From assembly GCA_964398525.1 (NCBI GenBank), contig CAYNMS010000001.1, forward strand, positions 6,569-70,568: a stretch of DNA of 64,000 bases. Direction: 5' to 3'. This document shows, in pieces, positions 1,130-21,044 of the stretch (positions are counted from its first letter, which is position 1; each line of letters starts with the position of its first letter). This stretch comes from an uncultured Pseudomonadales bacterium. GTDB lineage: Bacteria > Patescibacteriota > Microgenomatia > UBA1400 > CAYNFZ01. Both the position numbers and the translations under genes were made by a program. The notes under the pieces were generated by a model that searched no databases, was not told where the DNA came from, and saw nothing but the letters and a program-made list of their open reading frames with translations.

Positions 1130-4050
1130 TTTATTCGACCGATTAGTATCACTCAGCTAAACACATTACTGTGCGTACACCGGTGACCTATCAACCTGGT
1201 AGTCTTCCAGGGGTCTCTCGTTCCCGAAGGAACACGGAATCCTCATCTTGGGTGTGGCTTCCCGCTTAGATGCTTTCAGCGGTTATCCAGCAGAAGTGTA
1301 GCTACCCAGCAATGCACCTGACGGTAACAACTGGCACACTAGGGACTTCTCCATCCCGGTCCTCTCGTACTAGGGACAGCTTCCCTCAAGATTCCCACGC
1401 TGGCAGCGGATAGAGGCCGACCTGTCTCACGACGGTCTGAACCCAGCTCGCGTACCGCTTTAATAGGCGAACAGACTAACCCTTGGGACCTTCTTCAGCC
1501 CCAGGATGCGATGAGCCGACATCGAGGTAGCGAACCGCGCCGACGCTAGGGACGCTTAGGCGCGACTACTCTGTTATCCCCGGGGTAGCTTTTATTCGTT
1601 AAGCCCGGCACCTTCCACAAAGTGCACGAGGATCACTATGACCTGGTTTCCCACCTGCTCGACCTGTATGTCTCACAGTCAAGCGCCCTTTTGCCGTTGT
1701 ACGTCCAGCCCGATTTCCTTCCGGGCTAAGGGCACCTTTGTACGCTTGCGGTACTCTTTAGCAAGCATCCTCCCCAGATAAACTACCCACCAAACATTGT
1801 CCCTGATATAGTTTCCATATACCTTAGGTTAGATTCACCATAAAAAACGAGCGGTATTTCACTGACGGTTCGACCAAAGGCCGAACCTCCCGCCTATACT
1901 AAACGATTTTTCATGACAAATCAGTGTCAAGTTGTAGTAAAGCTCCACGGGGTCTTTTTGTCCTGCTGCCAGTAGGCCGCATCTTCACAGCCATTTCAAT
2001 TTCGCCGGGTCCCCTCTCAAGACAGTTACGGAATGGTTACACCTTTCGTGCGGGTCACCAATTAAGCGACAAGGAACTTCGCTACCATAGAACAGTTATA
2101 GTTACTGCTGCCGTTCACCGGGGCTTCGATTGGAAGCAATCACAACAAGTTGCAATCACCCCCTCAATTAACCTTCCGGCACTGGGCAGGCCTCAGCCCG
2201 TATACTTCCTCTTACGAGTTTGCACAGACCTGTGTTTTTGGTAAACAGTCCTTCCGTAGTCTTTATCTGCGACCCCGCTAATGCGGGGCTGGGCTTATTG
2301 CGAACGTACGCCCAGATTATTTGCCGAATTCCTTAAGAGAGGTTCTCCCGCTCGCCTTAGTCTACTCGACTCGTCCACCTGTGTCGGTTTGCGGTACGGT
2401 TTGACTTGATTCTCGTCACGACGCTTTTCTTGGCAGCTCACGTCATCTGGATTGCCATCTATTGCTAGACGACTTTCATTCACTCCTCGCCTTAAACGGA
2501 CTAACGGATTTTCCTGCTAGTCCTAACTAAGAGCTTAGACGTGTGCATCTTCTTCGCACCGCCCAGATTAGCCAACTGCGTCACGCCCTAACTAATAACG
2601 AATCAAACCAAGCACCGGAATATCAACCGGTAATCCATCGGCTACCCCAGCACAACACTGGGCTCACCTTAGGGCCGCCTAACCCTGAGTCGACGAACGT
2701 TGCTCAGGAAACCTTGGACTTGCGGCGTTGGAGATTCTCACTCCAATCTCGCTACTCATACCGGCATTCTCACTTGCTTGCGCTCCAGTTCGCCTTACGG
2801 CTGACCTTCACCGCCCAAGCAACGCTCCCCTACCGCTCGCCAGCCTAAGCTGACGAACCCATGTCTTCGGTTGATATCTTAGCCTCGTTGAATTTTCGAC
2901 GCTACTTTCCTCGGCTAGTGAGCTGTTACGCTTTCTTTCAAGGATGGCTGCTTCTAAGCCGACCTCCTAGGTGTCTGAGGAAAATAACTTCCTTTCCCAC
3001 TTAGATATCAATTTGAGACCTTAGACGATGGTCTGGGATGTTTCCCTTTTGCCTCTGGAGCTTAGCCCCCAGATACTCAGTCCCATGAATCCACTTTCAG
3101 TATTCGGAGTTTGATAGGATGCCGGCGCTTACGCACCAAACACCCTTCCAGTGCTCTACCCCTGAAAGTTTCGAACATGAGCCTGCACCTAAATGCATTT
3201 CGGGGAGAACCAGCTATCTCCGGACTCGATTGGCATATTACCCCTATCCACAGCTCATCCGAGCACCTTGCAGCGTACACCGGTTCGGGCCTCCGACACA
3301 TGTTACTGTGCCTTCACCCTGGCCATGGATAGCTCGTCCGGTTTCGGGTCTAAGATTATCTACTAATCGCCCTATTCAGGCTCGCTTTCACTCCGCCTCC
3401 GCGATGGCAATCGCTTAAGCTTGCAGATAACCTTAACTCGCCGGTTCATTCTTCAATAGGCACGCGGTCATCCAGCTAAGCTGGACTCCCACTGTTTGTT
3501 AGCAAACGGTTTCAGGTACTATTTCACGGGGTCATTAACCCTTCTTTTCACCTTTCCCTCACGGTACTAGTTCACTATCGGTCATGATGTGTGTTTAGCC
3601 TTGCACTGTGGTCAGCGCGGATTCACCCGGGAGTTTGCCGTCTCCCAAGCTACTCAGGATACTCCTAGGCTCGGTTTAGGTTTCGTTTACAGGGCTTTCA
3701 CCTTCTTTGGCCAACTATTCCAAGTTGTTCTCCTACCCTAGCCGATACCATATTAGAGTCCTACAACCCCCAGCTAAGCTGGGTTTGGGCTTTTCCCTGT
3801 TCGCTCATCGCTTACTAAGGGAATCTCTTACGATTTCTTTTCCTCTGGGTACTTAGATATTTCAGTTCTCCAGGTGCCCCACCCCTATCTAAAAGACAAG
3901 GGTCCAGTTGTGTTTCCACAACCGAGGTTTCCCTATTCGGACACCGCCGGATCAAAGCTTCTTGGCAGCTCCCCGACGTTTTTCGTAGCCATGCACGTCC
4001 TTCTTCGGCACATCATACCAAGGCATCCACCGTTTGCCTTAATTTAAAGT
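1130..4050 (-). rRNA. rrl: 23S ribosomal RNA
   Basis: Reverse complement carries conserved 23S blocks: GGATGCCTTGG near the 5' end, GGATAACAGGCTGAT and the GTTTAGAACGTCGTGAGACAGTTCGGTC domain V region, and GCTGAAAGCATCTAAGCGGGAAGCC near the 3' end. Length about 2.9 kb. Ends approximate (+/-15 nt). Confidence 0.92.
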
Positions 4051-4327
4051 AGTCAAGATTAAAGTCTGATCTAATAAGACCTACTGGTTTAAAGTTTAAA
4101 AAAACCTTAAACATTTATCTTCTCTTCACTTGTTAAAGAACAAATACTGCCGGGGTATTCCCTCTTGCAGATCCCGTACCGACTCTCTTTTGCTAATCTC
4201 TCTGTAGCCGGACAGCTACTCAATTAGACAATTTATCAAGTCGTCTTGTGGGATTAATGTGCTTCGAGTTTAAAGACTCGCGAAAGCCAATCTTTCAAGG
4301 CTTTAGCCAATCTTCAATTCTCGTTTG

Positions 4328-4400
4328 TGGACCTGAGCGGGCTCGAACCGCTTACCTCGTCATTGCAAATGACGCGCTCTACCAGCTGAGCTACAGGCCC
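4328..4400 (-). tRNA. tRNA-Ala (anticodon TGC)
   Basis: Reverse complement GGGCCTGTAGCTCAGCTGGTAGAGCGCGTCATTTGCAATGACGAGGTAAGCGGTTCGAGCCCGCTCAGGTCCA folds as a cloverleaf with anticodon loop TTTGCAA. It lies about 280 nt upstream of the 23S 5' end. CCA not encoded. Confidence 0.9.
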
Positions 4401-4720
4401 AAGAATTAAAGTGCCGTCAGTTCGCCACAGCCAAGTTGTACTCAACTAAAGCCAACCTATCAACGAACTAACTATTCTTTTTCGCTTATTTTTCCCCTAA
4501 GCGTTGGGATAAATGGATTTGCAACCGCTTTTATACGGTCAGCTGGATTATTCAATCTTAAAAAGTGCTGCTAGAGACCAAGTCCCTCAGGCAGCTTCAC
4601 TCACCATGACAACCAATCAGTGCGGTTTAAGTTTTTTCGGGTTGTCGCTTTCAGTTTCTGCATAAGGTTACTTGGGATCTCTCCAAGCGTACTGTATGTT
4701 ATCACCCCTTATTATTAAAT

Positions 4721-19310: not shown

Positions 19311-19316
19311 GCGGGG
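19293..19316 (-). terminator. rho-independent terminator downstream of 16S (CCCCGC-loop-GCGGGG + T6 on the minus transcript)
   Basis: Perfect 6-bp GC stem followed on the minus strand by TTTTTT. About 225 nt past the 16S 3' end. Confidence 0.5.
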
Positions 19317-19540
19317 TAATCTAGCGAATCCAGGCAATTCTAAACCTCTAAGAGGTGGTAGGAAGCGACCATCCCAAACAGAAAGCCTGTTTAAGCTGGT
19401 CCCTTCTTGGTCTCCGTGGCAACTACAAGGTAATGCCACGTGCCCAATTTAAGGCTGGGTGCCTAGAGTATTTTTGATCTGTTACCAGATCAGGGTATTT
19501 ACTTATCCCATGCGTGAGGCTGGGAACCCGTACTCCTTAG

Positions 19541-21044
19541 AAAGGAGGTGATCCATCCGCACCTTCCAGTACGGATACCTTGTTACGACTTAGTCCTCGT
19601 CGCCGACCTTGCCTTAGGCCCAATTCAATATTGAGACTTCGGGCATTGCCGACTTCGCTGGCTTGACGGGCAGTGTGTACAAGGAGCGAGAACGTATTCA
19701 CCGCAGTCTGCTGACCTGCGATTACTACCGATTCCGACTTCATGGGGGCGGGTTGCAGCCCCCAATCCGAACTGAGGAAAGGTTTGAGGATTAGCTCAGC
19801 CTTGCGGCATCGCGACCTACTGTCCTTCCCATTGTAGGATGTGTGTTGCCCTGGGCGTAAGGGCCATGCTGATTTGACGTCGTCCCCTCCTTCCTCCCCG
19901 CTTGCTGCGAGGCAGTCCCGTGTGATATGTAACACACAGTAGGGGTTGCGCTCGTTACCGCACTTAAGCGGACGTCTCACGACACGAGCTGACGACAACC
20001 ATGCAGCACCTGTGTACCACCCTCGAAGGCTTCTCTGGTTTCCCAGAGCGTGCAGGTACATGTCAAGCCCAGGTAAGGTTCTTCGCTTTGTCTCGAATTA
20101 AACCACATGCTCCACCGGTTGTGCGCTCCCCCGTCAATTCCTTTGAGTTTTAACCTTGCGGCCGTACTCCCCAGGCGGGATACTTAACGCGTTAGCTTAC
20201 GCCAGCCAACTCGCTAAAAGCAAAACCTCAAGTTTTACTCTTAGCGAATCGGCCAGCTAGTATCCATCGTTCACGGCTAGGACTACAGGGGTCTCTAATC
20301 CCTTTTGCTACCCTAGCTTTCGTCCCTTAGTGTCAGTACAGTCCTAGAAGCCTGTCTTCACCCTTGGCGTTCCTCTCGATATCAACGGATTTCACCCCTC
20401 CACCGAGAATTCCAACTTCCCCGAACTGACTCTAGATCTGCAGTATGACGAGCTGGTCTCCAGTTGAGCCGGAGGCTTTAACCCACCACTTACAAATCCA
20501 CCTACGAACGCTTTACGCCCAGTAATTCCGGATAACGCTTGCACCCTACGTATTACCGAGGCTTCTGGCACGTAGTTAGCAGGTGCTTTCTAGCAGGGTA
20601 CCGTCAAACTTCTTCCCCTGCCACAGTGGTTTACAACCCGAAGGCCTTCTTCCCACACGCGGTGTCGCTGCGTCAGGGTTTCCCCCATTGCGCAATATTC
20701 TCGGTTGCTGCCACCCGTAGGTGTAGGCCCCGTGTCTCAGTGACCTTGTGGGGGGCCACGCTCTCACGCCCCCTAGCCGTCATCGCCTTGGTAGGCTATT
20801 ACCCCACCAACTAGCTGATAGCACGCAGGCTCCTCCATCGGCGGACAGTTACGTCCTTTCCCCTTTCGGGCTTATGCGGAATTACACCTCCTTTCGGAGG
20901 GCTATTCCCCACCAATGGGCAGATTCCTACGCGTTACTCACCCGTCTGCCGCTCCGTCAACCCGAAGGTTGCGTCGCTCGACTTGCATGCCTAAAACACA
21001 CCGCCAGCGTTCATCCTGAGCCAGGATCAAACTCTCAAGAAAAA
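19541..21044 (-). rRNA. rrs: 16S ribosomal RNA
   Basis: Reverse complement starts AGAGTTTGATCCTGGCTCAGGATGAACGCTGGCGG and ends AAGTCGTAACAAGGTATCCGTACTGGAAGGTGCGGATGGATCACCTCCTT. Internal GTGCCAGCAGCCGCGGTAATAC-type blocks present. About 1.5 kb, no insertion evident. Confidence 0.95.

Follow-up and report, generated by a model that had tools for sequence, protein, structure and literature searches.

Ribosomal RNA (rRNA) genes that keep the order and strand of an operon and lie many kilobases apart raise the question of whether they are still transcribed as one. We address this question for the 16S, tRNA-Ile, tRNA-Ala and 23S genes of contig CAYNMS010000001.1 (assembly GCA_964398525.1), of which a stretch of 64,000 nt, henceforth the window, was analysed. 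We consider it probable that the locus, to all appearances a single rRNA gene set, descends from a canonical 16S-trnI-trnA-23S-5S operon and is no longer one operon, with most likely at least three transcription units in the window. Searches with Rfam/Infernal and ARAGORN, covering the 64-kb window and, for 5S, also 448 nt outside position 1 taken from an independent contig (L104), assigned the four RNA genes to the minus strand:

19541-21042, minus strand: 16S rRNA gene (RF00177, 1413 bits, model positions 1-1533), full length and with no insertion
12719-12793, minus strand: tRNA-Ile (GAT), from Rfam/Infernal and ARAGORN
4327-4400, minus strand: tRNA-Ala (TGC), from Rfam/Infernal and ARAGORN
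1123-4053, minus strand: 23S rRNA gene (RF02541, 2502 bits, model positions 1-2925), full length and with no intron

The order 16S, tRNA-Ile, tRNA-Ala and 23S on one strand is the canonical one, as the initial annotation had it, and the limits given there for the locus (1130 to 21044) agree with ours within 7 nt. From 16S to tRNA-Ile there are 6,747 nt, from tRNA-Ile to tRNA-Ala 8,318 nt (the 8 kb estimated initially) and from tRNA-Ala to 23S 273 nt, while the 16S-23S spacer as a whole measures 15,487 nt and contains about 20 protein genes, distributed over both strands. A canonical operon has a short spacer of at most 1500 bp containing tRNA genes at most (Brewer et al. 2019/2020, 10.1101/705046), whereas rRNA genes count as unlinked above 1500 bp in that study and above 2000 bp in that of Lui et al. 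2021 (PMC8172020); at 15,487 nt, the locus falls outside the first definition and inside the second. Opposite-strand genes in the spacer, which belong to the unlinked category as well, are also present: three plus-strand genes (18450-19310, 16230-16700 and 14300-15637) are interleaved between 16S and ruvB and are called in independent contigs too. Some 6.7 kb of genes after 16S, among them an MFS transporter gene, ruvC, ruvA and ruvB, had been described, and Pfam bears this out; tRNA-Ile, said to sit alone between a response-regulator gene and ruvB, does adjoin the former, but a 73-aa open reading frame (ORF) at 12849-13070 intervenes before the latter. A 5S gene, already reported as missing after the 23S gene, had no match in the entire window at E<=1, and none at E<=10 in positions 1-1284 or in the 448 nt immediately beyond position 1. 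The best explanation is that the 5S gene is situated somewhere outside the window.

The case for separate transcription units comes from the signals that accompany each RNA gene. Those of the 16S unit are, in the direction of transcription:

21260-21275, minus strand: terminator-like hairpin CCCCG-N6-CGGGG followed by CTTTTTATTT (-7.9 kcal/mol, with a weak z of -1.3)
21221-21248, minus strand: candidate promoter-like element TTGACA-N15-TGAGTAC, right after the hairpin and ~180-200 nt upstream of mature 16S
21144-21156, minus strand: boxA-like element TGCACTTTAATAA in the 16S leader
21075-21086, minus strand: 5' half of the 16S leader/trailer helix, GTGGTAGGAAGC, pairing with 19355-19366
19355-19366, minus strand: 3' half of the 16S leader/trailer helix, GCTTCCTACCAC, 175-186 nt past the mature 3' end
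19291-19317, minus strand: intrinsic terminator ACCCCGC-N6-GCGGGGT followed by TTTTTTG, ending the 16S unit (-16.5 kcal/mol, z -4.9)

The terminator-like hairpin would close the upstream gene and insulate the 16S unit, and behind it a perfect TTGACA at 21248-21243 opens the candidate promoter. The boxA of E. coli rrn operons reads TGCTCTTTAACAA, which the element in the 16S leader resembles. RNAduplex on the whole leader and trailer segments was uninformative (z -1.1, cross-controls scoring equally), and in its place we used a longest-perfect-helix test against 500 shuffles, none of which matched the perfect 12-bp helix around 16S. The trailer half of this helix lies 38 nt before the terminator and is kept as GGTTCCTACCAC in a relative (L190, contig SRR26786821_9131) with only 90% identity over the 3' third of 16S; this relative has a terminator at the equivalent place after 16S, and other trailer blocks are likewise conserved. 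A terminator belonging to the 16S gene had been proposed at 19293-19316, and we recover it at 19317-19298 with its T-run.

The signal preceding tRNA-Ile is of another kind:

12807-12815, minus strand: extended -10 box TGGTAAAAT, 13 nt upstream of tRNA-Ile

In the form TGRTAAAAT, this box is invariant in all four aligned species, and the intergenic DNA on either side of it is unconserved. Since no terminator follows tRNA-Ile, the tRNA and the response-regulator gene may share a transcript.

The signals of tRNA-Ala and 23S are the following:

4401-4720, minus strand: conserved region of ~320 nt upstream of tRNA-Ala, shared with the relative L193 (13578-13856), whose upstream protein genes differ
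4130-4142, minus strand: boxA-like element TGTTCTTTAACAA in the 23S leader, overlapping the 5' half of the 23S helix
4120-4132, minus strand: 5' half of the 23S leader/trailer helix, CAAGTGAAGAGAA; the leader block 4120-4142 is conserved in L193
1076-1088, minus strand: 3' half of the 23S leader/trailer helix, TTCTCTTCACTTG
1032-1059, no strand assigned: A-tract, hairpin and T-tract in the form of a bidirectional terminator, ~65-70 nt after 23S (-15.8 kcal/mol, z -4.9)

Within the ~320-nt region, TGATAACAT occupies 4696-4704, TGRTAACAT directly adjoins the stop codon of the upstream gene, and ~100 nt later, at ~4560-4595, comes a terminator-like hairpin with a T-run, conserved in L193; the region also carries a CCGTATAA box. 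A further hairpin (4483-4503) differs between the window and L193 by two compensatory changes (CGCTTA/TAAGCG versus TGCCTA/TAGGCA). The region may act as a leader, as an attenuator or as a small RNA. That it hides a 5S gene or another known RNA was considered and rejected, the best Rfam match having an E value of 0.21 and 20.9 bits, where the gathering score is 73.5. The initial annotation had suggested looking here (4400-4720) for a promoter of tRNA-Ala; the sigma-70 consensus scan returned none, but a candidate TTGATA-N13-TGAGTAC is seen at 4438-4463, within an insertion specific to the window.

The 23S helix is perfect over 13 bp, was matched by none of 500 shuffles and has an RNAduplex z of -4.3; by eye, the pairing reaches ~28 bp. 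It encloses 23S alone and the terminator follows directly, so that the 23S unit must have been built or rebuilt without 5S. The bidirectional terminator had been placed about 80 nt past 23S, and its position at 1059-1032 is close to that estimate.

Both spacers are now filled with protein-coding DNA: eight genes, ruvC, ruvA and ruvB among them, separate 16S from trnI, and about 12 separate trnI from trnA. In the arrangement that we propose, a first unit would comprise the upstream hairpin, the TTGACA element, the boxA-like leader, 16S within its 12-bp helix and the strong terminator. The second would be tRNA-Ile, with the conserved extended -10 box as its promoter and perhaps with read-through into the response-regulator gene, and the third tRNA-Ala-23S, with its boxA-like element, the 13-bp helix around 23S only and another strong terminator. 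Independent transcription of 16S, tRNA-Ile and tRNA-Ala-23S is thus the most likely reading, because of the signals of each unit and of the 860-nt antisense gene that follows the 16S terminator. The helices would act as RNase III-type processing stems and the boxA-like elements in antitermination; the identity of the enzyme and of the Nus-factor site is presumed here from what is generally known of rrn operons.

One operon of ~20 kb would explain the same map if boxA-protected transcription ran from the 16S promoter to 23S and the RNAs were cut from the transcript. The boxA-like elements would suit such an operon, as would the position of the four RNA genes and most of the intervening genes on one strand. 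It is nevertheless very improbable, since transcription would have to pass a strong terminator after 16S that is conserved in L190, as well as the terminator-like hairpin before tRNA-Ala that is conserved in L193, and would read three plus-strand genes antisense; nor would it account for a conserved promoter-like box directly before tRNA-Ile or for a separate enclosing helix around each rRNA.

All of this presupposes that the window is correctly assembled. Mis-joins at conserved rRNA genes are frequent in metagenome assembly, and the layout might be an artefact that attached the rRNA genes to contigs of other origin. We used exact-protein look-ups to retrieve Logan contigs (k=31) from more than 10 independent sequencing runs and mapped them onto the window; runs that contain the organism include SRR34646253-73, SRR10807626 and SRR10580906. 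They match it at 99.1-100% identity and cross all junctions tested except a 53-nt heptamer repeat in front of ruvB. The stretch 19703-14140, from the 3' part of 16S through the terminator, the MFS gene, ruvC and ruvA to a plus-strand gene, is covered by contigs such as L095, L097 and L100; 14146-3557, from ruvB through tRNA-Ile, the second interval and tRNA-Ala into the first ~500 nt of 23S, by L081, L087, L088 and L093; and 1284 to past position 1, from the 23S 3' end across the terminator and the ORF that follows it, by L103-L107. Many Logan contigs do end inside tRNA-Ala (4355) or at 14140 and 14146, and the 16S 5' junction lacks an independent check, two points in favour of a mis-join. However, the stops at 14140 and 14146 are explained by one perfect repeat of 53 nt, longer than k=31, in which both fall; contigs of several runs, identical or nearly identical to the window (100% or close to it), enter 16S from its 3' side (to 19703), 23S from its 5' side (to 3557) and 23S from its 3' side (from 1284); and the same adjacencies recur in the relatives L190 and L193. 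With independent runs crossing from flanking genes into the rRNA genes, the chimaeric assembly that the initial annotation had named as a ground for refutation is itself essentially refuted.

How the layout arose can be approached through its relatives, obtained by protein-database and contig look-ups (L190 and L192-L194). In L190 (RuvB 80% identical), the 16S 3' end is followed by several small ORFs, ruvC, ruvA, ruvB, a small ORF and tRNA-Ile (GAT), and then by at least 9.6 kb in which orthologues of a conserved 221-aa protein, a low-molecular-weight phosphatase (LMWPc) and CsbD occur in the order of the window. L194 (RuvB 76%) has ruvC, ruvA, ruvB, an ORF, tRNA-Ile, the 221-aa protein and LMWPc in this order, and no tRNA-Ala or 23S within 11.6 kb. 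L193 holds tRNA-Ile, five genes over 5.1 kb (including those of the 221-aa protein and MGMT), tRNA-Ala and the 5' end of 23S. The dispersed layout is thus inherited and has been stable across at least ~10% 16S divergence. Farther away, a distant relative (L188) has a compact ruvCAB beside ribosomal-protein genes, with tRNA-Pro after ruvB and no rRNA near, another (L001) has tRNA-Ala-GGC after ruvB, and in an outgroup (L195) the gene of the 221-aa protein stands among unrelated tRNAs and dnaG-rpoD with no rRNA nearby. Among the matches listed in RuvB scans of genome and metagenome contigs, relatives at up to 67% identity have no rRNA nearby.

The closest published counterpart is 'Ca. Chazhemtobacterium aquaticus' Ch65 (CP047901), a member of the Microgenomates order UBA1400 with a complete 0.8-Mb genome (Kadnikov et al. 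2020, PMC7143001). The organism of the window is clearly a Microgenomates bacterium (Candidate Phyla Radiation (CPR)/Patescibacteria), of the same kind of lineage as Ch65; among the matches listed in species-representative genomes, its nearest RuvB proteins come from Microgenomates (Gottesman-, Collier- and Daviesbacteria, 61-65%). It is not Ch65 itself: the RuvB of Ch65 is absent from the best 120 RuvB matches (64-99% identity), for which reason the window represents another species and probably another genus, and the 23S gene of the window is intron-free. Ch65 has single 16S and 23S genes in a 16S-trnI-[2 genes]-trnA-23S-5S cluster whose 23S carries a LAGLIDADG intron (PMC7143001). Like the window, it has ~45% GC, an extreme G/C strand disparity, trnI-GAU and trnA-UGC between 16S and 23S, and protein genes between the two tRNAs with trnA still next to 23S, which is also the case in L193. 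It differs in having two inserted genes between trnI and trnA, compared with about 12 over 8,318 nt; nothing between 16S and trnI, compared with eight genes including ruvCAB over 6,747 nt; and an attached 5S and a LAGLIDADG intron at 23S, where the window has neither. The window locus takes, in these respects, the arrangement of Ch65 further.

The number of genes inserted between trnI and trnA thus varies by lineage, with two in Ch65, five in L193 and about 12 in the window, and their content consists of a conserved core and variable parts. This graded series fits spacers that gained protein genes stepwise, although the direction and order of the events are our reading of the comparison and not of a phylogeny. 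The progressively fragmented ancestral operon of the initial annotation is supported: a dispersed set in canonical order is there and the series agrees with it, although the order of events implied by the word progressive is inferred. The RNA genes might instead have moved independently by inversion or translocation, their order being due to chance or to a leading-strand clustering of highly expressed genes. L192 and L194 have no 16S near their ruv genes, other tRNAs follow ruvB in distant relatives (tRNA-Pro in L188, tRNA-Ala-GGC in L001), and 85% of the picked ORFs of the window lie on one strand anyway. We regard such movement as unlikely: the exact order 16S, Ile-GAT, Ala-TGC and 23S within 20 kb is improbable by chance at this genome size class (0.8 Mb in Ch65), tRNA-Ala is still 273 nt from 23S with the spacer boxA in place, and the intermediates Ch65 and L193 hold the same order with shorter inserts.

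Several observations speak against descent by break-up into separately transcribed units, the reading that we prefer, and temper it. The sigma-70 consensus scan found no canonical promoter upstream of 16S or tRNA-Ala, nor in the third region upstream of tRNA-Ile, and there were fewer sites than in shuffles. The TTGAYA-N-TGAGTAC pattern was derived from the 16S site and its twin at 4438-4463, so that any statistic on it is circular and it counts as a candidate only; the shared TTGAYA...TGAGTAC motif is, moreover, unconserved in L193. Independent transcription is read from sequence signals only, and some polymerases might in principle pass the 16S terminator by way of boxA antitermination. The 16S 5' junction (21043-21378) has no independent bridge, look-ups of the upstream ORFs (122 aa, and 231 aa with an alternative start) having matched nothing. 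Finally, L192 (RuvB 81%) lacks 16S and tRNA-Ile beside its ruv genes, from which it follows that the history was not a simple one-way series and also included rearrangement or loss.

Unlinked rRNA genes as such are well documented. Patescibacteria are among the clades in which they predominate (Brewer et al. 2019/2020, 10.1101/705046), and 27 of 34 circularised CPR genomes (~80%) have them, with 23S and 5S sometimes apart and with spacers that contain tRNAs as well as protein genes (Lui et al. 2021, PMC8172020). The layout of the window is therefore ordinary for its phylum. These surveys (10.1101/705046; PMC8172020) classify by distance and strand; they give neither signals per unit of the kind seen here (leader/trailer helices, boxA, terminators, a tRNA-Ile promoter box) nor a description of the trnI-trnA split. 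Outside the phylum, unlinked rRNA genes have been named for Buchnera, Wolbachia/Rickettsia, Mycoplasma gallisepticum and Borrelia, and all three rRNA genes lie apart in Thermoplasmata (PMC8172020; 10.1101/705046). The reduced or host-associated genomes share with the window a small genome, a 16S gene apart from 23S(-5S) and presumably separate promoters. Most of them, however, have widely separated genes and have lost or moved the spacer tRNAs, whereas the window retains order, strand and both tRNAs within 20 kb.

An rrn operon of the E. coli type has boxA elements in leader and spacer and RNase III stems. The window shares with it the gene order, the Ile-GAU and Ala-UGC tRNAs, boxA-like elements before 16S and 23S, and a helix around each rRNA; it differs in having a spacer of 15.5 kb instead of ~0.5 kb, a terminator after 16S, protein genes on both strands inside and no 5S attached. 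The outline of the operon is still visible, and in both the 16S and the 23S piece the boxA-like element, the processing helix and the terminator have been kept. Our analysis contributes the make-up of each unit and a short comparative series, in which the window, Ch65 and three relatives offer graded material for the study of rrn operon break-up; no new question is opened, unlinked rRNA being already the usual state in CPR bacteria. For annotation and binning, adjacency of 16S, 23S and 5S cannot be assumed in this lineage. Because the genes are not adjacent, amplicons across 16S, the internal transcribed spacer and 23S and long-read operon methods will miss it, and linking 16S genes to bins through the operon will fail.

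A more far-reaching interpretation is that the rRNA spacers of this clade of extreme strand skew are a long-lived, growing landing site for genes, with a conserved core (the gene of the 221-aa anchor protein) and variable cargo, in which balanced rRNA production without co-transcription would be secured by dedicated signals including the ~320-nt element as a new regulatory leader or small RNA. We think this very unlikely. The possibility that the 5S gene is too diverged for recognition, rather than merely elsewhere, is linked to it.

The protein genes between the RNA genes fall into two intervals, assigned from Pfam and ORF calls. The first, from 16S to tRNA-Ile, covers 12849-19310 on both strands (6.7 kb, eight genes):

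18450-19310, plus strand: antisense membrane ORF of 860 nt, following the 16S terminator and preceding the MFS gene
17226-18470, minus strand: MFS transporter (Pfam)
16697-17188, minus strand: RuvC (Pfam)
16230-16700, plus strand: ORF
15641-16195, minus strand: RuvA (Pfam)
14300-15637, plus strand: PMT_2-like membrane protein (Pfam), whose L192 orthologue is 53% identical
13071-14111, minus strand: RuvB (Pfam)
12849-13070, minus strand: 73-aa ORF between ruvB and tRNA-Ile

The second, from tRNA-Ile to tRNA-Ala, covers 4721-12656 on the minus strand (8.3 kb, about 12 genes), and one further gene follows the 23S unit:

12195-12656, minus strand: response-regulator receiver (Pfam), directly after tRNA-Ile
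11295-11960, minus strand: conserved 221-aa 'anchor' protein with no Pfam family
within the second interval, minus strand: 86-aa ORF
9256-10935, minus strand: TPR membrane protein (Pfam)
8747-9211, minus strand: LMWPc phosphatase (Pfam)
within the second interval, minus strand: 129-aa ORF
7929-8375, minus strand: MGMT (Pfam)
6238-7905, minus strand: 555-aa acidic protein
5101-5358, minus strand: CsbD (Pfam)
4721-5104, minus strand: 127-aa ORF
266-769, minus strand: 167-aa ORF, the first gene past the 23S terminator, with no family in the Pfam scan and the precomputed label UCP014422 on the matching Logan genes

The repeat in front of ruvB is also listed here:

14117-14169, no strand assigned: perfect heptamer tandem repeat CTACTTA x 7.6 (53 nt), ending 6 nt upstream of the ruvB start codon

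Read in the direction of ruvB, this repeat is (GTAGTAA)n, and all Logan contigs stop within it; a change in its copy number could influence ruvB expression. Two further observations concern the relatives. In L190, two short ORFs upstream of ruvC (2365-2880) resemble the RuvC N-terminus (14-18 aa, 64-67% identity), which suggests partial RuvC duplications or pseudogene fragments. In L193, a DDE transposase-like gene with weak IS1/IS240 matches lies on the minus strand at 7426-8277, ~400 nt upstream of tRNA-Ile, in a minus-strand block that the window lacks, a hint that turnover near the split rRNA locus is partly due to mobile DNA.

The most unusual feature of the window is its G/C strand disparity, a phenomenon already published for the lineage. 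Ch65, with 44.8% GC, 14.97% G and 29.83% C (PMC7143001), was the single obvious skew outlier among 17,873 complete genomes (PMC11514846). The plus strand of the window has 12.9% G, 31.9% C, 25.4% A and 29.8% T, giving a GC skew of -0.42 (-0.19 to -0.58 per 2 kb), which is locally stronger than in Ch65. At third codon positions, the skew on the coding strand is +0.66 in minus-strand and -0.66 in plus-strand genes, with -0.42 in intergenic DNA; because the sign flips with gene orientation, the skew tracks the DNA strand and not transcription. The G-rich strand carries 51 of the 60 picked ORFs and is slightly A-rich as well, which simple cytosine deamination would not yield. At four-fold sites of ruvABC, G and C amount to 44% and 7% in the window, 53% and 9% in L190, 19% and 11% in L194, and 18% and 22% in L192; locus-wide skews are 0.42 in the window and in L190, 0.20 in L194, 0.07 in L192 and 0.05 in L193. 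Skewed and unskewed close relatives could thus be compared to seek the responsible change in replication or repair.

At the far end of the window, a tRNA-Ile with the anticodon TAT (62826-62900, plus strand) lies near two tRNAs with CAT anticodons (60384-60456 and 60600-60672, plus strand). A tRNA-Ile with a TAT anticodon is rare in bacteria, and this one may bear on the reading of AUA codons in the lineage. Between it and the CAT pair, on the minority strand, is a tyrosine recombinase gene (Phage_integrase with an N-terminal SAM-like domain; 61165-62046, plus strand), which could encode XerC/D or the integrase of a small element integrated beside the tRNA genes.

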